In this document: piece by piece, positions 354 through 59,173 of the stretch
Position numbering within the stretch: the first letter of the stretch is position 1
Layout: each line of letters starts with the position of its first letter
NCBI RefSeq assembly: GCF_003019035.1
Contig: NZ_CP027447.1
Source: Escherichia coli
Lineage (GTDB): Bacteria; Pseudomonadota; Gammaproteobacteria; Enterobacterales; Enterobacteriaceae
Length of the DNA stretch: 64,000 nt
Reading direction: 5' to 3' (one strand)
Notes under the pieces: generated by a model
Database searches by the model: none
What the model was told of the DNA's origin: nothing
Seen by the model: only the letters and a program-made list of their open reading frames with translations
Position numbers and translations under genes: made by a program

Positions 354-2135
354 ATGAATGCTGCCCTGACTGAACGACTGGTTTATGTCGCCCGCGCGGC
401 ACGTGACGCGGGGCATGGTAAACGCGGTGCAATATACGACGCTGCCTGTGCTGAACTTGGCATGTCCCGCGCCACTCTGCTGCGCAGGCTGAAGGAGGTC
501 TCTGTGACTGATAAACGCAAAAAACGCGCCGATGCCGGGCGCAGCGCTCTGACCCGCGACGAAGCCGCGCTGATATCTGCCACACTGCGTGAGGCCACCC
601 GCAAGAACGGTAAGCGTCTCTATTCCATCGCAGATGCAGTGGAAACCCTGCGGGCTAACGGCTTTATCTCCGCAGGCAGAACAGATGAAACCACCGGTGA
701 GTTTTTCCCGTTGTCCGAAGATGCCATCAGTCGTGCCCTGCGTAACTATGGCCTGCACCCGGAACAACTGGATGCCCCTGCACCGCATACCGAAGTGGCC
801 AGTCTGCATCCCAATCATGTCTGGCAGATTGACGCCTCACTCTGCACGCTTTACTACCTGAGCAATGGACATAAAGGGCTGCAGGTGATGGACAGCGCGA
901 AGTTCTACAAGAACAAGCCCGCTAACCTTGCCCGTATCGCCAGTGACCGCGTGTGGAGTTACGAGATTACCGACCATGCCAGCGGCTGGATTTACGTTGA
1001 GTATGTGACGGGCGCGGAATCCGGTGAGAACCTGTGTTCTGTGCTTATCAACGCCATGCAGGAGCGCGGTGGCGCAGACGTGCTGCACGGCGTGCCGAAA
1101 ATACTCTATCTCGACCCTGGCTCGGCAAACACCGCGGGTATGACGAAAAACATGTGCCGCTCACTGGGCATCGACCTGATAGCGCACAGGCCGCATAACG
1201 CCCGCGCCACCGGACAGGTGGAAAAGGCGCGTGACATTATCGAACGCAAGCTGGAGCCGGGTCTGAAGTTCCGGCCGGTTCACAGTCTGGAAGAACTCAA
1301 CGCGCTGGCCGCGAAATGGCGCAGCCACTTTAACGCCACGGCTGTTCACAGCCGCCACGGTAAAACCCGCACGGATATCTGGCTGAAGATTACTGCTGAG
1401 CAGCTGAAAAAAGCGCCTTCCGTTGAAGTATGCCGTGAACTGGCTGTGGCGACACCAGAACTCCGCAAAGTCACGCCAAAACTTCGTGTCTCGTTCCGGG
1501 GCACTGAATTTGACGTATCAACGGTACCGGGCGTACTGGTTGGTGAAAAACTGATGATTACCCGTAACCCATGGCGCAGCGATGTGGCACAGGTGGTTCT
1601 GACCGGTGAGGACGGCCACGAGACGTTCTTCCTGGTCGAAGAGGTCAGAAAGAACGAGTTTGGCTTTGCTGAAGGCGCGGCGGTATTTGGCGAAAGTTAC
1701 AAAGCCCTGCCGGAAACCCCGGCACAGATGGCGGCAAAAGAAACCGAAGCGCTGGTTACCGGTACAGACAACGCCGCAGATGCAGCCGCCGCACGCAAGG
1801 CGAAGGCGCTGCCGTTCGGCGGGCGGCTTGACCCGTATAAACATATCGACGACACCACACTTCCGGCCTATATGCCGAAGCGTGGTCAGGCCTCTGACGT
1901 ACGCGGGCCGCGCACTGAACAACGTCCCATGACTCATGTGGAGGCCGCGAAAGCCCTGCGCGATAAGTTCAGCGCCGACGGCCTTACCTGGACGCCGGAA
2001 CATTACCGCCAGTTAACGGCACAGTACCCGGACGGCGTACCGGAAGCTGCACTGGATGAAGTCATGGCCACGCTGACCACGCCGGCCCGCAGCAGCGTTA
2101 TCAGCAGCGTTATCAGCATTGTTAACGGCAACTGA
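354..2135 (+). CDS. Mu-like DDE transposase (A-like, integrase-core family)
   Basis: 593 aa ORF, ATG at 354 with GGAGG upstream; integrase-core-like segment (HVWQIDAS...); sits directly upstream of a B-like ATPase as in Mu A-B. Confidence 0.8.
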   Translation: MNAALTERLVYVARAARDAGHGKRGAIYDAACAELGMSRATLLRRLKEVSVTDKRKKRADAGRSALTRDEAALISATLREATRKNGKRLYSIADAVETLRANGFISAGRTDETTGEFFPLSEDAISRALRNYGLHPEQLDAPAPHTEVASLHPNHVWQIDASLCTLYYLSNGHKGLQVMDSAKFYKNKPANLARIASDRVWSYEITDHASGWIYVEYVTGAESGENLCSVLINAMQERGGADVLHGVPKILYLDPGSANTAGMTKNMCRSLGIDLIAHRPHNARATGQVEKARDIIERKLEPGLKFRPVHSLEELNALAAKWRSHFNATAVHSRHGKTRTDIWLKITAEQLKKAPSVEVCRELAVATPELRKVTPKLRVSFRGTEFDVSTVPGVLVGEKLMITRNPWRSDVAQVVLTGEDGHETFFLVEEVRKNEFGFAEGAAVFGESYKALPETPAQMAAKETEALVTGTDNAADAAAARKAKALPFGGRLDPYKHIDDTTLPAYMPKRGQASDVRGPRTEQRPMTHVEAAKALRDKFSADGLTWTPEHYRQLTAQYPDGVPEAALDEVMATLTTPARSSVISSVISIVNGN

Positions 2136-2145
2136 GGAGGAAAAC

Positions 2146-3312
2146 ATGCTGGTACTGAAGCAGCAACTGAAAGAGGCCCGTATCCCACAGGCGGTGGTGG
2201 CGAGAGCTGTCGATGTTTCTGAGGCCACGCTGGCCCAGATTGTGAATCATAACGCGTGGCCCCGCACCCGCCCCGGAGAAGTGCGCCGGCGTCTTGCGTC
2301 CTGGCTGGAAAGTCAGGGGATTGATACAACGAAGAGTTTTGATGCTGTACAGGGCGCGGCCACGCCCCGTACAGCGGGTACCACAGATAAAACGAGCCTC
2401 AGTGAGGAAGAGAATATGTTACTCAAAAAACAGGTGTTATTTCCAGCAACCAAAAAAGCGTTTGGTCTTTTCCGTGACCCGTTCGCCGACGAAGCCATGC
2501 AGGGTTCTGATGATGTGTTCACCACCCCGGACATTCGCTACGTGCGTGAGGCGCTGTACCAGACAGCCCGTCATGGTGGGTTTATGGCCGTCATCGGTGA
2601 GTCCGGTGCGGGTAAATCCACGCTGCGCCGCGACCTGACTGAACGTATCAACCGCGAGAATGCGCCGGTAATTGTTATCGAGCCATACATCATCGCTATG
2701 GAAGACAACGATGTGAAAGGGAAAACCCTGAAGGCAGCAGCTATTGCCGAAGCCATTATCAGTACCATCGCACCACTGGAAAGCATCAGACGCAGTCAGG
2801 ACGCCCGCTTTCGCCAGTTGCATCGCGTCCTGAAAGACAGCAGCCAGGCGGGGTTCAGCCACGTTCTGGTGATTGAGGAGGCTCACAGTCTGCCCATTCC
2901 GACACTGAAACACCTCAAACGCTTTTTTGAGCTGGAGTCCGGTTTCAAAAAACTGCTGTCCATCGTGCTGATTGGTCAGCCGGAACTGGCGACAAAACTG
3001 TCTGAACGCAATATGGAAGTCCGTGAAGTCGTTCAGCGCTGTGAGGTGGTCGAACTTCTGCCTCTGGACAATAACCTTGAAGAGTTTCTGACGTTCAAAC
3101 TGCAACGGGCCGGTAAACAACTGACGGACATTATGGACGCCAGTGCAGTGGATGCCATACGTGCCCGCCTGAGCAATCCGGGAAGTCATCGTAAAAATAT
3201 GGTCAGCCTGCTGTATCCGCTGGCCGTCAGTAACCTGGTGATAGCCGCCATGAATCTGGCCGCTGAAATCGGGGTTCCACAGGTCAACGCTGACGTTGTC
3301 AAAGGGGTTTAA
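2146..3312 (+). CDS. Mu B-like AAA+ transposition ATPase
   Basis: ATG 2146 preceded by GAGGAGG; Walker A GESGAGKST, Walker B-like VLVIEEAHSL; N-terminal HTH-like segment; overlaps A stop. Track ORF starts at TTG 2119, but the ATG at 2146 has the better RBS. Confidence 0.8.
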   Translation: MLVLKQQLKEARIPQAVVARAVDVSEATLAQIVNHNAWPRTRPGEVRRRLASWLESQGIDTTKSFDAVQGAATPRTAGTTDKTSLSEEENMLLKKQVLFPATKKAFGLFRDPFADEAMQGSDDVFTTPDIRYVREALYQTARHGGFMAVIGESGAGKSTLRRDLTERINRENAPVIVIEPYIIAMEDNDVKGKTLKAAAIAEAIISTIAPLESIRRSQDARFRQLHRVLKDSSQAGFSHVLVIEEAHSLPIPTLKHLKRFFELESGFKKLLSIVLIGQPELATKLSERNMEVREVVQRCEVVELLPLDNNLEEFLTFKLQRAGKQLTDIMDASAVDAIRARLSNPGSHRKNMVSLLYPLAVSNLVIAAMNLAAEIGVPQVNADVVKGV

Positions 3313-3314
3313 TA

Positions 3315-3584
3315 ATGAAATCCACCACAGGTATCAACCAGCAAATCAGCAAAGTGCAGTCAGCCATTATGGCGCTTAAGGCGACGAACACGGATGTACA
3401 AAGCATCACCATCAGGGGTAACAAACCTGTCATCCGCGTTTCCCGGAGTGCGCATTGCATGCGCATGCTTGAGCAGGGAAAGGCCTGTTATCTGTATACC
3501 GGACATGACCACAGGGGATATTTCCGTCAGGGCGTTTTCGAACTGCACGGCTGTCGCGTCGTGTGGCCGGAATCTTTGTGGTAA
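3315..3584 (+). CDS. hypothetical small protein (89 aa) between B and gam
   Basis: ATG 3315 with AAAGGGG RBS, 2 nt after B stop; no recognisable motif. Confidence 0.5.
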   Translation: MKSTTGINQQISKVQSAIMALKATNTDVQSITIRGNKPVIRVSRSAHCMRMLEQGKACYLYTGHDHRGYFRQGVFELHGCRVVWPESLW

Positions 3585-3611
3585 TCAGCACAACTGGAGA
3601 AATCATAAAAT

Positions 3612-4142
3612 ATGGCAAAAAGTACAAAAGGGGCAAAACGTATCAAGTCCGCAGCGGCACTCTGGGTACCAGGGACACGCGAAGAGGTCATTGAGGGCAT
3701 CAGACTGCTCGGTGACGCACAACGTGAACTGGTCAGGGCTGAAACAGAAATGAATGACGCCATTGGCGATATCACCGCACGTTATGCCCCGCTCACCGAG
3801 AGCCTGAAAAAACGCATGGCCGAACTGCAGTCCGGTATTCAGACATGGTGTGAGGCACACCGTGATGAACTGACCGGCAACGGGAAGGTGAAGTTCGCTA
3901 ACCTCACCACCGGCGAGGTGCAGTGGCGAAACCGTCCGCCATCAGTCAGTATCCGTGGAGCGGATAATGTTATTGAACTACTGAGACGTCTGGGGCTTGA
4001 GCGCTTTATTCGTGTAAAAGAGGAAATAAATAAAGATGCCATTCTGAATGAAAAAGAGGCCGTGAAAAATATTCCCGGTATTACCATAAAAAGTGATATT
4101 GAGGATTTTTCAATAATTCCTTTTGAGCAGGATGTGCAGTAA
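3612..4142 (+). CDS. gam: Gam-like host-nuclease inhibitor (Mu Gam / Ku-like DNA end-binding)
   Basis: 176 aa; N-terminus MAK...KRIKSAAA, ETEMNDAI, and C-terminal EDFSIIPFEQ closely match recalled phage Mu Gam. Confidence 0.88.
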   Translation: MAKSTKGAKRIKSAAALWVPGTREEVIEGIRLLGDAQRELVRAETEMNDAIGDITARYAPLTESLKKRMAELQSGIQTWCEAHRDELTGNGKVKFANLTTGEVQWRNRPPSVSIRGADNVIELLRRLGLERFIRVKEEINKDAILNEKEAVKNIPGITIKSDIEDFSIIPFEQDVQ

Positions 4143-4184
4143 ACACACCACGTTAATTATTTAATAAAAATATTTTCTTTTTTA

Positions 4185-4221
4185 TTCCGGCGTCAGCGCC
4201 GTGGGCTTCTGCACGCCGGAA
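4185..4221 (+). promoter_or_regulatory. inverted repeat / hairpin in AT-rich intergenic region after gam
   Basis: ttccggcgt (4185-4193) pairs with acgccggaa (4213-4221), preceded by a T-rich tract; may be a gam terminator or an operator for the next operon. Confidence 0.3.
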
Positions 4222-4239
4222 ACAGAGGAGAATTAAATT

Positions 4240-4434
4240 ATGATATTTAAATGTATTCAGTGCGAGAGGGATATAACAGCCCTGCGTTTTCACAGCGCCA
4301 TCGCCGTGATGTCCGGTAAATACCACATCCCTGCGGTACGCGTCACCCTGGTCTGCCCGTACTGCAGCCAGCATTTTTCGGCGGACGTGCCCGTCATGGA
4401 ATTCTCCCGCCCTGACAGGGAGGACGCGCAATGA
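4240..4434 (+). CDS. small zinc-ribbon protein (64 aa; CxxC...CxxC)
   Basis: ATG 4240 with GAGGAG RBS; Cys pairs CIQC and CPYC about 30 residues apart. Confidence 0.55.
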   Translation: MIFKCIQCERDITALRFHSAIAVMSGKYHIPAVRVTLVCPYCSQHFSADVPVMEFSRPDREDAQ

Positions 4435-4712: not shown

Positions 4713-5009
4713 ATGACACGAAACACCGAACTCACCCGCACCGCCCTCTACCGTCTGGCCCTGCACCGTTTCGGGCCGGACGCACAGGCCCTGAAACTGA
4801 CAGAAGAGGCCGCTGAACTGGCGGCCAGTGCTGCCCGCAATCTGAACGGACAGGGCAACGAAAGTGACCTCGCGGCAGAGCTGGCAGACGTGGAAATCAT
4901 GACAGAGCAATTGCGCCTTCAGGGGATGGACCGGCTGATTGACTTCCACAAACAGAAAAAACTGGAACGTCTGGCTGCACGACTGGGCGTGATTTACACG
5001 AACGAGTAA
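4713..5009 (+). CDS. MazG-like nucleotide pyrophosphohydrolase-domain protein (putative)
   Basis: 98 aa; EEAAELA and ELADVEI motifs resemble the EExxE and ExxD helices of small MazG/NTP-PPase proteins; GAGGG RBS. Confidence 0.45.
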   Translation: MTRNTELTRTALYRLALHRFGPDAQALKLTEEAAELAASAARNLNGQGNESDLAAELADVEIMTEQLRLQGMDRLIDFHKQKKLERLAARLGVIYTNE

Positions 5010-5023
5010 CCGGGAGGCATTCA

Positions 5024-5239
5024 ATGGCTGACATACTCAGGGAAATCACCGCATGGATACTGATTCTTACTGGCCTGGCGACATGCCTCAGTGCGGGGGC
5101 AGCCCTGGCTGCCCTGCTGATGCACATAACAACACAGTGGTTATGGGAAAAGCTTAAAGCAGCATACAGCCTGAAAGAGCTGTCCGACGCTGTCCGGGCA
5201 TGGAAACGGCAGAAAAATACCGGAGATACAGAACAATGA
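5024..5239 (+). CDS. small membrane protein (71 aa, one predicted TM helix)
   Basis: ATG 5024 with GGGAGG RBS; hydrophobic segment ITAWILILTGLATCLSAGAALAALLM; ATGA overlap with the next gene. Confidence 0.5.
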   Translation: MADILREITAWILILTGLATCLSAGAALAALLMHITTQWLWEKLKAAYSLKELSDAVRAWKRQKNTGDTEQ

Positions 5240-5919
5240 CAGACCAGAATAAACACATTGAGAAACTGAAAAAGTTGCTGGCGCTGGCCGCATCCGGCAA
5301 CCCGCACGAGGCCGCTCTGGCACTGCGCCGAGCCCGTAAACTGATGGATGTTCACGGCATCACACATTCCGACATTGCTATGAGTGATATTGATGAAACC
5401 ATCAGTCATTACTGGCCGACAGGCAGTCTCCGTCCACCGCGCTACATGCTGGGCCTGATGAACATCATCCGCGAGGCATTTGGTGTTAACTCCATCATTC
5501 ACCCCGGCACGCATCCGTCTGTGGGGTTCTACGGTAACCGGGAACGAGCGGCACTGGCTGCGTACACCTGGGAAGTGCTGGTCCGCCAGCTGAAAAAGGC
5601 GCGTCAGCAGTATATCAGCGCACAGAACAAAAGAATAAAAAACGCCACCCGTACCAGCCGTGGAGACCAGTTTGCTGAAGGCTGGGTACTGGCCGTTATC
5701 AGTGAAATACAGTCCTTTGCCCTGACCGATGATGAGCGTGAACTGATGCAACAGTGGCTGGAACATAAATACCCGCAAACGCAAACCACCAGGGCGCGTA
5801 AACCGGGAAGAAGCCGCAATGGCGACGCCTCGCGCTATGCGGGGTTTCGTGAAGGGCAGAACGTCAGACTGCACCGCCCGGTCAGTGGGCAGGAACAACA
5901 GAAACTGGAGGCCAGATGA
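5236..5919 (+). CDS. DUF2786-like phage protein (227 aa)
   Basis: N-terminal motif KLKKLLALAASGNPHEAALALRRARKLM is typical of the DUF2786 family; GGAGA RBS. Confidence 0.55.
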   Translation: MTDQNKHIEKLKKLLALAASGNPHEAALALRRARKLMDVHGITHSDIAMSDIDETISHYWPTGSLRPPRYMLGLMNIIREAFGVNSIIHPGTHPSVGFYGNRERAALAAYTWEVLVRQLKKARQQYISAQNKRIKNATRTSRGDQFAEGWVLAVISEIQSFALTDDERELMQQWLEHKYPQTQTTRARKPGRSRNGDASRYAGFREGQNVRLHRPVSGQEQQKLEAR

Positions 5920-6146: not shown

Positions 6147-6351
6147 ATCTGTTGTATGTGCCCTGTTCTGGTATTGTTTTGTCGGTTGGTGTACTGCTGA
6201 ACTGCACCGCCGTTCAGGGTTTTATTCACGTTACAGTGGTGCCGGCTACTGGATTAGCTGGTCGGTGATGTTCCTGTGCTGGCCTGTGGCGCTTCCTTTA
6301 TATGTCGGTTATATCGGTGGCGCAGGTAAAAGGAGCAACGATGATGACTAA
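6136..6351 (+). CDS. small membrane protein (71 aa, two predicted TM helices)
   Basis: ATG 6136 preceded by GGGGGG; two hydrophobic, W/C-rich helices; 3' end overlaps gemA start. Confidence 0.45.
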   Translation: MTAESVVCALFWYCFVGWCTAELHRRSGFYSRYSGAGYWISWSVMFLCWPVALPLYVGYIGGAGKRSNDDD

Positions 6352-6793
6352 ACAACGTCTTATCCAGCTCATTCATATTGCCCGTAATGAACTGGGTATG
6401 GATGAAGACACCTACCGCCAGATGTTACAGGGGCTGACCGGTAAAGCCTCAACCAAAGGAATGGATACCACACAACTAAACTGCGTGCTGGAATCCATGA
6501 AAAGGAAAGGCTTTCGCGTTAAGCCTGCCGGAAAAGCCAGCTCCGGTTTACCGCTGGATAACCATCCGCAGTCCAGGAAAATCCGTGCGCTATGGCTTGA
6601 AATGGCTGCTGCCGGCATTGTTCGTGACCGTTCAGAAAATGCATTAGCGCGGTGGATCAAGCGGGAAACGGGCATCAGCGCCCTGCGCTGGCTCAATACT
6701 GAACAGGCAAGCAGTGTTATTGAGAAACTGAAGAAGTGGCAGCACAGAGCTGCGGGAGTAAAACATGAGCGACCTGAATCAGTTTCGAAGTAA
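6341..6793 (+). CDS. gemA: GemA-like protein (Mu gp16 family)
   Basis: ATG 6341 with AAAGGAG RBS; N-terminus MMTKQRLIQLIHIARNELGMDEDTYRQ matches the GemA family; 3' end overlaps mor by 29 nt. Confidence 0.8.
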   Translation: MMTKQRLIQLIHIARNELGMDEDTYRQMLQGLTGKASTKGMDTTQLNCVLESMKRKGFRVKPAGKASSGLPLDNHPQSRKIRALWLEMAAAGIVRDRSENALARWIKRETGISALRWLNTEQASSVIEKLKKWQHRAAGVKHERPESVSK

Positions 6794-7163
6794 AGGGCCG
6801 GAACTCCTGGTGGAGCTGGCACAGCATACCTCTGAGACCGTTCGCGAGATTATTGATATTGAGCCCGCAATTGCCGACCAGATTGGTCAGGCCGTCGCGA
6901 ACCGAATGATGCAGGTCTGGGGCGGGCAAAACGTTTATTTCCCGATGGGCATGGTATGGAAGGTCAGTCAGCGCGACCGGGAAATCTTCAGGGAGTTTAA
7001 CGGACGCAACCACCACGAACTGGCCCGCAAGTTTGGTGTTTCGCTTCAGTGGGTCTACAGCGTGGTTAAGCGGGTCAGAAAAGAAGAACTGGATCGGATG
7101 CAGGGCAGGTTGTTTGATGAAGATCTGCCAGAGGAGACGAAAGACGTTAACAAATCCAGATAA
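6765..7163 (+). CDS. mor: Mor-like middle-operon transcriptional activator
   Basis: 132 aa; GGQNVYFP motif and C-terminal HTH resemble Mu Mor; GGGAG RBS. Confidence 0.82.
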   Translation: MSDLNQFRSKGPELLVELAQHTSETVREIIDIEPAIADQIGQAVANRMMQVWGGQNVYFPMGMVWKVSQRDREIFREFNGRNHHELARKFGVSLQWVYSVVKRVRKEELDRMQGRLFDEDLPEETKDVNKSR

Positions 7164-7205
7164 TTCCTGCTTGTTAAAGTCCTTTCAAAAATCTCCTTAT
7201 TGTAT

Positions 7206-7240
7206 AAAAGCACGGTAGACCCCTTACCGTGCTTTTTTTA
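7206..7240 (+). terminator. rho-independent terminator after mor
   Basis: Stem agcacggta / taccgtgct with 7-nt loop, followed by a T7 run (7234-7240). Confidence 0.6.
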
Positions 7241-7277
7241 TGCTCTCTCTTTAGTATTCAGGATGCAGGGAGAAAAT

Positions 7278-7910
7278 ATGTTTGACGTTTCGTTGTTAAA
7301 TCTGCCATGGGCAACACTGGTGACCCTGACCAGTGGCTATATTGGGTATTTTATTGCGAATGTGGGACTGAAGGATCACCACAAGCCCATTGAGGTGACT
7401 TTTTCTTCGCTGATTTTTGGCCTGACAGCAATGATGGCTTACCAGGCTGTTATGTGGGCAGGTCTGAATGCCTGGCTGGCAACACCACCAGCACTTCTGT
7501 GTGCCGTTACATGCGGTGCGTGGTGGCGCAGGTACGGTCGCAAATGGATGTACAGATTACTGTGGAATAATGATATTTCATGGTCTGACGATACCAGCTC
7601 AGCATGGCAGGCAATGTTTGATCAAACAGGCTTCAGCGTTACCGAGGTCAGAGTGATTCTTCGCGATGGTTCCGGTATGATGTCACGGCTGCCAGGGAAC
7701 TTTGAAGAGTGGCCTAACGGTCCGTTTACCCTGGGGAATAAAGGCGATATGGTTCTTTACGTCACGCACAGCAGCCCTTCAGGCAGTAACGAATGGGAAG
7801 AGTATAAAGGCGTGGTTGATAAGTACTGGGGAGCTCTGGCAACCTATATTCCAGCAGATCAGATTGCCAGAGTGGAGATCAGGCGCGTTCGTGCAACGAA
7901 CGATGAATGA
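7278..7910 (+). CDS. orphan membrane protein (211 aa; three N-terminal TM helices plus about 125-aa soluble C-terminal domain), function unknown
   Basis: ATG 7278 with AGGGAGA RBS 6 nt upstream; hydrophobic helices at roughly residues 8-30, 40-63 and 67-83; sits where Mu carries late activator C; no family recognised. Confidence 0.6.
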   Translation: MFDVSLLNLPWATLVTLTSGYIGYFIANVGLKDHHKPIEVTFSSLIFGLTAMMAYQAVMWAGLNAWLATPPALLCAVTCGAWWRRYGRKWMYRLLWNNDISWSDDTSSAWQAMFDQTGFSVTEVRVILRDGSGMMSRLPGNFEEWPNGPFTLGNKGDMVLYVTHSSPSGSNEWEEYKGVVDKYWGALATYIPADQIARVEIRRVRATNDE

Positions 7911-8295
7911 TGTTTATTTTTTCCCTGGGGCAGGGGCTGCCGGCATAGTGGTTTTATTGGCAGAGGAAGACGATTCTCCTTTTCTACCGGAATCGCGCTC
8001 GAACGTCACGATGTGCTTGCTTTTGGGCTTTTCTGAGTAATCCAGGCTATCATGCTTATTGTTTTGAGTAGTCATTGGAATCATCCTTTTTGTTGCGGGT
8101 CATGTTTCAGCAAACTCGATTCTAAGTTGCCAGGAAGGATGATTTCAATGCCCGACTTATCTATCGTATAGCGGAAAAGAATTTCAGTTCTGTTCACCAG
8201 AACCCATGTTAACCCACTCCAATTCGTTATTTATCTCACGGATCCCCCTTCATTTATCTCATGTCTGATCAAATCAATAATCATCATGAATGTTT

Positions 8296-8312
8296 TGTTT
8301 ATAATTGGTTGA
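8296..8312 (+). promoter_or_regulatory. putative PhoP box upstream of slyB
   Basis: TGTTTA-N5-GGTTGA direct repeat about 125 bp upstream of slyB ATG; slyB is recalled as PhoP-activated. Confidence 0.35.
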
Positions 8313-8435
8313 TCCTACTTTCATTATGATTTGCTCATATTTGGTAGAACATGTAACCATGGATTCACATATGCCATATACTTTGACCATGAGGGATGCT
8401 TGCGTGGCGTTTCATGGTGAACAGGAGATTTTTCA

Positions 8436-8903
8436 ATGATTAAACGCGTATTGGTTGTTTCAATGGTAGGTCTGTCTCTTGTCGGTTGTGTTAATAACGA
8501 CACCCTGTCAGGGGATGTTTATACCGCTTCTGAAGCGAAACAAGTACAGAATGTCAGCTATGGCACCATCGTTAACGTACGTCCGGTACAGATTCAGGGC
8601 GGTGATGATTCCAACGTTATCGGTGCAATTGGCGGTGCTGTTCTTGGTGGTTTCCTGGGGAATACTGTTGGCGGCGGAACCGGGCGTTCTCTGGCTACTG
8701 CAGCAGGCGCTGTTGCAGGTGGCGTAGCCGGTCAGGGCGTACAGAGTGCAATGAACAAAACGCAGGGTGTCGAGCTGGAAATTCGTAAAGACGATGGTAA
8801 TACCATCATGGTGGTACAGAAACAAGGCAACACTCGTTTCTCTCCGGGCCAACGTGTCGTACTGGCCAGCAATGGCAGTCAGGTGACCGTTTCCCCGCGC
8901 TAA
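8436..8903 (+). CDS. slyB: outer membrane lipoprotein SlyB
   Basis: 155 aa; lipobox LVGC and Gly-rich core match E. coli SlyB. Confidence 0.95.
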   Translation: MIKRVLVVSMVGLSLVGCVNNDTLSGDVYTASEAKQVQNVSYGTIVNVRPVQIQGGDDSNVIGAIGGAVLGGFLGNTVGGGTGRSLATAAGAVAGGVAGQGVQSAMNKTQGVELEIRKDDGNTIMVVQKQGNTRFSPGQRVVLASNGSQVTVSPR

Positions 8904-8949
8904 ATAAGTTTGCGTGTGGTCAGGTTACTGACCACACGCCCCCTTCATT

Positions 8950-9390
8950 TCACCCTTTGGCCTGTAACTCAATGATATTATGCTCAAGTTTTGCGATGAG
9001 CTTAATCAGTTGTTCCAGTTCCTCTGCGGAGATGCCATGTAAAATTTCCGCGCGGGTTTTGTTAATAACAGCTTCCATTTCGCTGATCAGCGGCTCTGCC
9101 TTTTCCGTCAGTTTAATACGTTTAGCCCGACGATCGCTGGCACAAGTTTGACGCGAAATTAACCCTTTTTCTTCCAGTTGGTCCAGAGTACGGACCAGTG
9201 ATGGCTGCTCGATGCCAATCGCTTTTGCCAGTTGAATTTGCGACTGGTCTGGAGGTAACTGATGGATATTGTGTAACGTAACCCAATGGGTTTGTGTTAA
9301 CTCCAGCGGTTTCAGGCGATGGTCTATCAGAGCACGCCATATGCGCACCAACCGTGCCAGATCAGAACCTAGTGGCGATTCCAATTTCAT
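8950..9390 (-). CDS. slyA: MarR-family transcriptional regulator SlyA
   Basis: Translation matches SlyA; the annotated start may be the TTG 6 nt inside (9384). Confidence 0.93.
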
Positions 9391-9584
9391 CTCCTTATAA
9401 TTAGCTTGCTAAGATATTATGCGGCTTTTAGAATAGTGTGCAGCAATTGTATTGCTAAAACAAATGTATTGCTGCATTTGGTTACCGTCAGACATATTTT
9501 TCAGAAATTGCGCGTAAATTTTTCGCACTTAAAGAATATTTATTAATCTAACGCAATATATTCGGTCGTAAAGGAATCTACTTT

Positions 9585-25847: not shown

Positions 25848-26012
25848 GCCTTATCTCCACCTCTTCGCGTCATTACGCGATATTCATTAAAGTGGCGAAA
25901 GCATGACAGCAATCACAAAAAAATGAAAATAACAAAAAGAGAAAACACTTTTGCCATTTTGCTAACAAACAGGAAGGAGATGCGAGGGAGAGCGCGCTCC
26001 CTCGAGAGGAAA

Positions 26013-26102
26013 TCAGTGCAGCGCGGCAGTCAAACCCACGGCCACGATCAAACCGAGGACGATAATCGTTGTTACCAGTGAAAATTTAAGGTCGGTGCTC
26101 AT
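26013..26102 (-). CDS. ynhF: small membrane protein YnhF (29 aa)
   Basis: Minus-strand translation MSTDLKFSLVTTIIVLGLIVAVGLTAALH; below the track length cut-off, found by hand. Confidence 0.6.
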   Translation of the reverse strand: MSTDLKFSLVTTIIVLGLIVAVGLTAALH

Positions 26103-26400
26103 CAAGTTTTCTCCTTTTTTATTACCACACAAAAAGTGATATTACGCATTTTTACACACTGTGATGAAAAAATCTCCCGTCATTTATAATGATAAGTGTT
26201 TTTACCACTTCCCCTTTTCGTCAAGATCGGCCAAAATTCCACGCTTACACTATTTGCGTACTGGCCATTGACCCCTTCCTGACGCTCCGTGTCGTTTTTC
26301 CGGCGTACCGCAACACTTTTGTTGTGCGTAAGGTGTGTAAAGGCAAACGTTTACCTTGCGATTTTGCAGGAGCTGAAGTTAGGGTCTGGAGTGAAATGGA

Positions 26401-34991: not shown

Positions 34992-35068
34992 GCGTTCATA
35001 GCTCAGTTGGTTAGAGCACCACCTTGACATGGTGGGGGTCGTTGGTTCGAGTCCAATTGAACGCACCA
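34992..35068 (+). tRNA. valV: tRNA-Val (anticodon GAC)
   Basis: 77-nt cloverleaf GCGTTCATAGCTCAGTTGGTTAGAGC...TTCGAGTCC...ACGCACCA. Confidence 0.93.
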
Positions 35069-35072
35069 TCCT

Positions 35073-35149
35073 GCGTCCGTAGCTCAGTTGGTTAGAGCAC
35101 CACCTTGACATGGTGGGGGTCGGTGGTTCGAGTCCACTCGGACGCACCA
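35073..35149 (+). tRNA. valW: tRNA-Val (anticodon GAC)
   Basis: Second near-identical 77-nt tRNA 4 nt downstream, ending CCA. Confidence 0.93.
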
Positions 35150-35257
35150 GATTTTCTTAATCTGGTCTTCTCATTTTTTCCCTCTGTTTCTTCTCTGTAT
35201 CCAATACGTTAAAAGATTTACACTGTATTCGTATGCGTTATCAGAAGGAGAATCGCT

Positions 35258-35563
35258 ATGGCAACTTTGTTACAACTTCATTTTTCTTTCAATGGCCCAT
35301 TTGGCGACGCAATGGCTGAGCAGCTTAAACCGCTTGCTGAGTCGATTAATCAGGAACCTGGTTTTCTGTGGAAGGTATGGACAGAAAGTGAAAAGAACCA
35401 CGAAGCCGGTGGGATCTACCTTTTTACTGATGAAAAAAGCGCCCTTGCCTATCTGGAAAAACATACTGCCCGACTGAAAAATCTCGGCGTTAAGGAAGTT
35501 GTCGCCAAAGTTTTCGATGTCAATGAGCCACTGAGTCAAATCAATCAGGCAAAACTCGCCTGA
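35258..35563 (+). CDS. ydhR: putative monooxygenase YdhR
   Basis: 101 aa. Confidence 0.88.
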
Positions 35564-53224: not shown

Positions 53225-53295
53225 CAGAAATAAGAAAACCCTTAAGTCTGTGCGACACAGGCTTAAGGGTTTCTACCCCATCCGGCGCTTATCTC
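53225..53295 (-). ncRNA. rydB: candidate small RNA (RydB position) ending in a minus-strand intrinsic terminator
   Basis: 16-bp near-perfect hairpin (53237-53271) followed, on the minus strand, by a U-rich tract; RydB is recalled to lie between sufA and ydiH. Boundaries are approximate and the sequence identity is not verified. Confidence 0.3.
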
Positions 53296-53494
53296 CGGCA
53301 CTCTCAGTGGCTTAGCTCTTGAAGGGGCGATAAGAATAATCTCATAAAGCTAACCCGCCGTTTTAACACAAACTGCGATTAGTATTATTTTTGAACAATA
53401 TCAGGCGGGTAGATAAGCAGTATTAAGAAGGTCATCGAACCTGGACGGAGGTTAATCCAGGTCGATTTGGCGAAATTGCGGCATTAAGTCAGGA

Positions 53495-58930: not shown

Positions 58931-59036
58931 ACGGTTATAAATCAACATATTGATTTATAAGCATGGAAATCCCCTGAGTGAAACAACGAATTGCTGTGTG
59001 TAGTCTTTGCCCATCTCCCACGATGGGCTTTTTTTT
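58931..59036 (+). ncRNA. rprA: small regulatory RNA RprA
   Basis: acggttataaatcaacatattgatttataagcatggaaatcccctgagtg...cccatctcccacgatgggcttttttt matches recalled RprA including its terminator. Confidence 0.88.
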
Positions 59037-59173
59037 AACATTTTTCCGCTTCGCTACCTCGCCCCTCACGCTTTCCAATAATGTTGCACAAGATACTGTG
59101 ACTCTCTTCAAGCCGTCAGCAGGCTGATAATGTTATTTATATTTTATTGTTTATTTCATGCAGCCATTACACG

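Follow-up and report, generated by a model that had tools for sequence, protein, structure and literature searches.

The 64,000-nucleotide stretch of Escherichia coli DNA analysed here (contig NZ_CP027447.1 of assembly GCF_003019035.1; "the window" throughout) carries at its left end an arm of a transposable prophage, with a gene of 89 codons between the transposition gene B and gam. We call this open reading frame (ORF) ORF89; it lies at 3315..3584 on the plus strand. In our judgement it is fairly probable that ORF89 belongs, as a divergent relative, to the superfamily of Mu Kil (Kil/Cim, gp5), residing in a BcepMu-like transposable E. coli prophage and acting as an early host-toxic binder. 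The first part of this reading, a remote homology between ORF89 and Mu Kil that extends over the full length, is supported by profile comparisons, and host toxicity is likely by analogy with Mu Kil.

The ORF89 family was collected with a HMMER profile made from close homologues, which was run exhaustively, without a word index, against 1.84 billion representative proteins. The search returned 84 representatives (clusters at 50% identity) at E ≤ 1e-3, most of them 85-120 amino acids long. The family alignment, A3, holds 67 sequences, and all column statistics given here come from it. When A3 was aligned with the Mu Kil alignment A4 by hhalign, we obtained a score of 28.1 (E 1.6e-5 to 4e-5, probability 70-79%) over 69 columns, which span the whole of Kil. 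Column-shuffled Kil alignments (n=200) had a mean score of 10.3 with a standard deviation of 2.2 and a maximum of 22.4, so none reached 28, and the reversed Kil alignment scored 14.8. The match was also specific. In a comparison with 18 Mu early and middle proteins Kil alone scored (29.9, probability 80%), and the next protein, gp12, reached 16.5 over 14 columns. Over all these runs the match to Kil scored 28-30, at E 1.4e-5 to 4e-5. The remote homology search which the original prediction had proposed thus led to Mu Kil, with a profile-profile E of about 1e-5.

Cross-matches between protein families point the same way. ORF89 belongs end to end to PHROG 2041 (E 3e-36), a family whose function label is "unknown", and all 67 aligned members match it. 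Nearly over its full length ORF89 also gave a weak match (E 0.019) to PHROG 6381, labelled "Kil protein for bacterial septation inhibition", while Mu Kil's own PHROG 2743 was not detected with ORF89. In the reciprocal search Mu Kil matched PHROG 2743, then PHROG 6381 (E 1.3e-9) and PHROG 2679, and it reached PHROG 2041 weakly (E 0.2) at full length. Six of the 67 family members match PHROG 6381 (best E 1.3e-5) and six match PHROG 2743 (best E 3.9e-5). Moreover, three family members found with the ORF89 profile (P0129, P0138 and P0141; E 1e-5 to 1.5e-4) carry a precomputed assignment to Pfam PF26843 (Kil_protein), to which Mu Kil and its near relatives are also assigned. These comparisons support a link between the previously unlabelled PHROG 2041 and the Kil PHROGs. 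Both proteins also share a C-terminal motif, LHGCRVVW in ORF89 and LNGCQIIW in Mu Kil (G68-C69-Q70-I71-I72-W73).

The structural models are in agreement with this. The AlphaFold2 model of ORF89, computed from A3, has a mean predicted local distance difference test (pLDDT) of 90.9 and a predicted template modelling score (pTM) of 0.80, with helices (H) and strands (E) at H5-23, E28-32, E39-42, H46-53, E58-65, E68-77 and E80-87. The Mu Kil model, computed from its own narrow alignment only, has a pLDDT of 90.1 and a pTM of 0.75, with elements at H2-17, E21-26, E33-37, H41-44, E48-54, E57-66 and E69-73. The element order α-β-β-α-β-β-β is common to both models and is in register with the hhalign alignment. 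ORF89 and Mu Kil are therefore predicted to have the same fold.

Several observations weigh against placing ORF89 with Mu Kil or against carrying the phenotype over. The direct sequence evidence for ORF89 itself is weak: BLASTP against Mu Kil aligns just 22 C-terminal residues. The family hidden Markov model gives Mu Kil only 15-17 bits, and the hhalign probability of 70-80% is below 95%. The precomputed Pfam field of ORF89's own cluster is empty ("-"). The likeness of the two AlphaFold2 models is one of element order. The identity to Mu Kil is about 20%, and the killing phenotype, which is known for Mu Kil alone, may not be conserved. The isoelectric points of the family run from 5.2 to 11.2, so the surface chemistry varies too, and our literature search found no experiment on any PHROG 2041 member.

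The gene order gives further context. We located seven distant family members, 24-39% identical to ORF89, on their contigs, and all seven lie downstream of an AAA_22 B protein in Mu-type early operons. These operons contain rve/Mu transposase, GemA and Mor, and some also DUF3164, Dam or HU. The gene directly adjoins B in four of the seven loci (gaps of 1-12 nucleotides), and in three of these (L007, L010 and L012) the gap is 1-2 nucleotides. Mu has the same order as the window, with kil after B. The original prediction had placed ORF89 in the kil position on its location alone, and this assignment was borne out by the hhalign result, the PHROG and Pfam cross-matches, the synteny and the shared predicted topology.

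The proximity to B would also fit a protein that serves B in transposition, by helping B loading, target choice or target immunity, and that is toxic only as a side effect. The link to an AAA_22 protein of the B type is kept with both short MuB-type (238-297 amino acids) and long ExeA-type (394-424 amino acids) partners, and the gaps of 1-2 nucleotides suggest coupled translation and a fixed stoichiometry. However, A, B and the host proteins HU/IHF suffice for Mu transposition in vitro, which counts against such a factor. Two or three small unrelated ORFs part the gene from B in the other three of the seven distant loci, and the adjacency may reflect operon order only. In addition, kil lies within a region described as "semi-essential early" (PMC4553209), and the dispensability of that region disfavours the accessory role. 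We regard a role as a transposition accessory as unlikely.

Comparison of homologous sequences shows that ORF89 itself is a conserved gene that codes for protein and evolves under purifying selection. Chance ORFs of similar length occur by the dozen in all frames of this region, so the length of 89 codons is not significant in itself and the coding status rests on comparison. Between ORF89 and its 69%-identical homologue in Klebsiella phage KP12, differences at codon positions 1, 2 and 3 number 20, 17 and 50. The proportion of nonsynonymous differences (pN) is 0.19 and that of synonymous differences (pS) 0.80, whereas both shifted frames give omega >1. Homologues at 61-70% identity share the start (MKS...) and the length of ORF89. 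The original prediction had allowed for an untranslated spacer between B and gam. The abundance of chance ORFs and the label "hypothetical", which ORF89 bears in every database, would suit a spacer or a chance ORF, but a third-position bias with pN far below pS solely in the ORF89 frame, the kept start and length, the depth of the family and the confident predicted fold rule it out, and we give it next to no probability. Two overlapping ORFs, at 3394-3753 on the plus strand and 3360-3548 on the minus strand, were considered as coding candidates and rejected, as the substitution pattern fits the ORF89 frame alone.

The gene is widespread. Of 5426 complete E. coli genomes, 636 (~12%) contain its region, and the identical protein is found on at least 1000 contigs, always under the name hypothetical or uncharacterised. 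ORF89-type proteins also occur in related prophages found in Salmonella, Klebsiella, Enterobacter and Citrobacter. At 90% identity, the cluster of ORF89 and the cluster of P0010, a 67%-identical protein, each hold about 310 sequences. Several of the singleton variants (P0002, P0004, P0014, P0015 and P0079-P0085) are frameshifted or truncated. They represent occasional decay or sequencing errors and not a second isoform, as intact forms fill the clusters of ~310 members. Among 50,697 phage records, tblastn found just three close homologues, all hypothetical or unannotated, and BcepMu was not among them.

The reading frame runs from ATG 3315 to TAA 3582-3584 and encodes 89 amino acids (10.1 kDa). 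The stop codon of B (TAA 3310-3312) is followed by a gap of only 2 nucleotides, and 27 nucleotides separate the ORF89 stop from the gam ATG at 3612. A Shine-Dalgarno sequence, AAAGGGG (3301..3307, plus strand), was read within the 3' end of B, 7 nucleotides ahead of the ATG. Its position inside B and the close spacing suggest that ORF89 is translationally coupled to B. A scan of 2900-4300 for promoters and terminators found no more sites than in shuffled sequences, and a separate transcription unit is not indicated. An 89-residue ORF with a good ribosome-binding site, tightly packed between B and gam, is thus present as originally described. The identity of its neighbours also held, with AAA_22 and PHROG 296 matches upstream and a Phage_Mu_Gam match downstream. 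The hydropathy of the product peaks at 0.38 in a 19-residue Kyte-Doolittle window, without a hydrophobic segment, so it is a soluble, cytoplasmic protein that lacks a membrane segment.

In the family alignment Trp84 is invariant (67 of 67 members), and L21, P38 and A57 are nearly so. Further strongly conserved positions are G25, C48, G55, Y59, G68, R71, G73, Q74, F75, G79, C80, R81 and E86. The codons of the C-terminal motif G79-C80-R81-V82-V83-W84, defined from the column statistics and alignments, are placed at 3552..3566 on the plus strand, and its family form is G-C-R/Q-V/I-x-W. The original prediction had described a product with Cys and His residues and no recognisable motif. The content is correct, with three Cys (48, 58 and 80) and four His (47, 64, 66 and 78), but as a family feature it did not stand, since only C48 (75%) and C80 (84%) recur. 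H47, H64 and H78 are kept in 12%, 18% and 16% of members, respectively, and H66 and C58 are variable. As for the motif, ORF89 matched no family in Pfam, NCBIfam or PADLOC even at permissive E-values (Pfam up to E 10), in a Pfam copy that was without PF26843 and in which Mu Kil itself has 0 matches. For these libraries the claim stands; the conserved C-terminal motif, in turn, contradicts it.

Two functional readings of the composition were rejected. A zinc or other metal site is not compatible with the alignment, as only C48 and C80 recur, and not universally, and four conserved ligands are absent; Mu Kil has one Cys. The product is basic (isoelectric point 9.85), which could point to nucleic-acid binding, but as a family property this fails on the range of isoelectric points given above.

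The predicted fold raised the question of an enzymatic activity. Fold neighbours of ORF89 with a Pol-β nucleotidyltransferase core were found at low scores. In a Foldseek search of BFVD one match was significant, an uncharacterised family member, and Mu Kil was not in the best 50. ORF89 does not match the RsfS/Iojap sequence family. Among PDB sequences, no match to the family profile was better than E 0.28, and the matches were unrelated proteins (ArsD, proteasome α4). Signatures of Pol-β nucleotidyltransferases and RelA-SpoT proteins ([DE]x[DE] with a third acidic residue, and the hG[GS] loop) are not conserved among the 67 members. No Asp/Glu pair is conserved in the family, and the only conserved acidic residue is E86 (85%), at the C-terminus. 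Since the neighbour scores are low and the family is without a conserved acidic pair or G[GS] loop, we do not read ORF89 as an enzyme. We take it for a non-catalytic small α+β domain, possibly with a degenerate nucleotidyltransferase-like fold. The lack of a conserved acidic pair and of any Pfam or NCBIfam enzyme family supports a non-enzymatic binder.

A miniature nucleotidyltransferase or RelA-SpoT-like enzyme of the toxSAS, MenT or Tas1 type, which would kill by modifying nucleotides or tRNA, is suggested by the fold neighbours only. It would have to work without the conserved acidic pair, and E86, the sole conserved acid, is absent from Mu Kil; we find such an enzyme highly improbable. A related idea is that the whole Kil superfamily, Mu Kil together with PHROG 2041, is a miniaturised and catalytically dead derivative of the nucleotidyltransferase/RelA-SpoT fold that kills by occupying the site of a host partner. 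It seems to us very unlikely. If it were true, the protein would act like RsfS/Iojap or like pseudo-enzymes, on the ribosome, a tRNA or a nucleotide-signalling protein, and inhibition of septation would be secondary.

The function that we propose for ORF89, that of an early host-toxic binder, draws on Mu Kil. The kil gene of Mu was defined genetically in the 1980s. Its product acts on the shape or the division of the cell and is the same as cim, as is also recorded in the GenBank note and the PHROG label. In 1989 Waggoner and colleagues reportedly saw that Mu Kil kills the host without phage replication. No mechanism or target of Mu Kil was reported in the literature that we searched. Papers that cite Mu kil do so in passing only, and they sometimes conflate it with the FtsZ-directed Kil proteins of λ and Rac.

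On derepression, ORF89 would be made together with A and B within minutes and would bind a host protein stoichiometrically. The contact surface is likely the conserved face of the β3-β5 sheet (Y59, R71, Q74, F75, C80, R81, W84, E86), and the C-terminal GCRVxW(x)E motif probably also takes part in binding. The growth or division of the host would then be arrested and the cell killed whether or not the phage replicates, as has been reported for Mu Kil. Induction would become irreversible, and the cell would be committed to lytic growth.

The neighbourhood of gam leaves room for another role, that of a counter-defence or other accessory protein, such as one that inhibits a host nuclease or immune system and works beside Gam, without intrinsic toxicity. 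The gene adjoins gam, small accessory genes abound in the region, and a short gene that diverges fast is typical of this class. There is also a precedent in Mu, where E6/Mup07 ("gnarl2") was given a host-modifying counter-defence role (bioRxiv 10.1101/2023.04.06.535777). The same source describes this protein, encoded two genes past kil (L002 4784-5047), as a "gnarl" counter-defence factor that affects the O-antigen and UDP-glucose pathways. At that place an E6 counterpart is absent from the prophage in the window, as the kil-like gene stands alone between B and gam. Against a counter-defence role, Mu Kil, the sole homologue that has been characterised, is defined by its killing of the host, and a family that spans 84 or more clusters (50% identity) and keeps one Trp invariant suggests a conserved and not a strain-specific target. 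No similarity to defence models was found either, in PADLOC, which covers defence systems and not anti-defence proteins. We hold a counter-defence role to be decidedly unlikely and retain the host-toxic binder as the preferred function.

The transposable prophage arm occupies positions 1 to ~8270 of the window, with its genes on the plus strand in the early operon order A, B, ORF89, gam, small ORFs, gemA and mor. The remainder of the prophage, with the repressor and late genes, extends beyond the window on the left. The DNA of the arm is essentially that of Escherichia phage PhiKM (Bcepmuvirus), whose XRL29422.1, annotated as "hypothetical protein", is 100% identical to the ORF89 product. The DDE transposase gene A (354..2135) is an ORF that is named "transposase" in PhiKM and KP12 and gives weak matches to rve-type transposases of IS481 and IS21. 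With it begins the portion of the early operon that the window contains. B (2119..3312) encodes a transposition ATPase of the ExeA/AAA_22 type (AAA_22 E 4e-20; PHROG 296 "DNA transposition protein" E 8e-94), and NCBI names it ExeA family. The mechanically called B ORF has TTG 2119 as its first codon and so begins inside the end of the transposase gene, while the 1167-nucleotide coding sequence (CDS) of PhiKM and KP12 corresponds to ATG 2146 (MLVLKQQL...). ATG 2146 is likely the true start.

Downstream of ORF89, gam (3612..4142; Phage_Mu_Gam E 5.6e-41, PHROG 491 E 1e-73) encodes an inhibitor of host nucleases that protects DNA ends. It is followed by a 64-residue ORF with two CxxC pairs, zinc-ribbon-like (4240-4434, plus strand; PHROG 3401 E 1e-40). 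At this place the PhiKM record annotates a minus-strand CDS (4153-4431 on the minus strand; L001 6839-7060), and the minus-strand ORF is without a PHROG match. The PhiKM CDS is probably annotated on the wrong strand. Next come a 98-residue fragment or homologue of a MazG-like nucleoside triphosphate pyrophosphohydrolase (4713-5009, plus strand; PHROG 2245 E 8e-34) and a DUF2786/DUF7168 protein (5200-5919, plus strand; Pfam E 3e-26 and 5e-11), whose family also occurs in the early region of the distant Mu-like locus L009. The genes gemA (6302-6793, plus strand; Pfam GemA E 1.6e-40) and mor (6765-7163, plus strand; Pfam Mor E 1.1e-43) stand at the distal end, which marks the whole block as a Mu-type early region.

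The last gene before the prophage end is an ORF of 236 residues (7200-7910, plus strand). Residues 27-236 match PHROG 12870, of unknown function, at E 1e-133, with no match in NCBIfam or PADLOC. It may be a moron or cargo gene, and its real start is probably internal, at the methionine in position 27. The junction between prophage and host lies approximately at 8269..8278, a short way upstream of slyB. When positions 6800-9400 were used as the query, prophage matches ended at query position 1479 and host matches began at 1470. The host sequence beyond ~8269-8278 carries slyB and slyA. In the 5426 complete E. coli genomes the number of records covering at least 80% of 6800-9400 was 0, so none of them joins this prophage end to slyB. 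This fits the random transpositional insertion expected of a Mu-like element. Rfam gave nothing in the prophage part of the window. In the host part it matched STnc550 (26010-26400, minus strand), two tRNAs (34992-35146, plus strand) with an overlapping antisense HPnc0260 match (35111-35274, minus strand), rydB (53268-53328, minus strand) and RprA (58931-59038, plus strand), which is ordinary E. coli chromosome content.

These results place a widespread "hypothetical" protein in the Mu Kil superfamily, with the support described above, and thereby offer an annotation for thousands of database entries. The deep alignment supplies conserved surface residues for mutagenesis (the eight of the proposed contact face), and two concordant, confident structural models are provided. 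Comparison of two members of ~20% identity in the same host, E. coli, gives a practical route to the common target. The value is chiefly in the annotation and in a comparative handle on the mechanism of Mu Kil; otherwise, for a transposable prophage, ORF89 is an ordinary accessory gene, and the finding will not surprise a specialist.

Among known systems, λ Kil and Rac KilR are division inhibitors directed at FtsZ and, like ORF89, small early prophage proteins; theirs are lethal when expressed. They are unrelated to ORF89 in sequence, and while ORF89 is predicted to form a compact α-β-β-α-β-β-β domain, λ Kil is a short helical peptide. For the latter a helix-turn-helix core is predicted (PMC11762379), and the kil products of Mu, Rac and λ have no significant similarity to each other (PMC3961180). 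Papers that ascribe FtsZ inhibition to "kil" concern the unrelated λ and Rac proteins. The closest known system is Mu Kil (gp5, Cim; AAF01084; PF26843; PHROGs 2743, 6381 and 2679), a protein of 74 amino acids encoded by the first gene after B in Mu. Unlike Mu Kil, ORF89 has a longer β3-β4 hairpin and a C-terminal extension of five residues with E86, which is absent from Mu Kil. Its B partner is of the long ExeA type, one gene lies between B and gam where Mu has five, and its host phage is a BcepMu-like myovirus and not a Muvirus as for Mu Kil.
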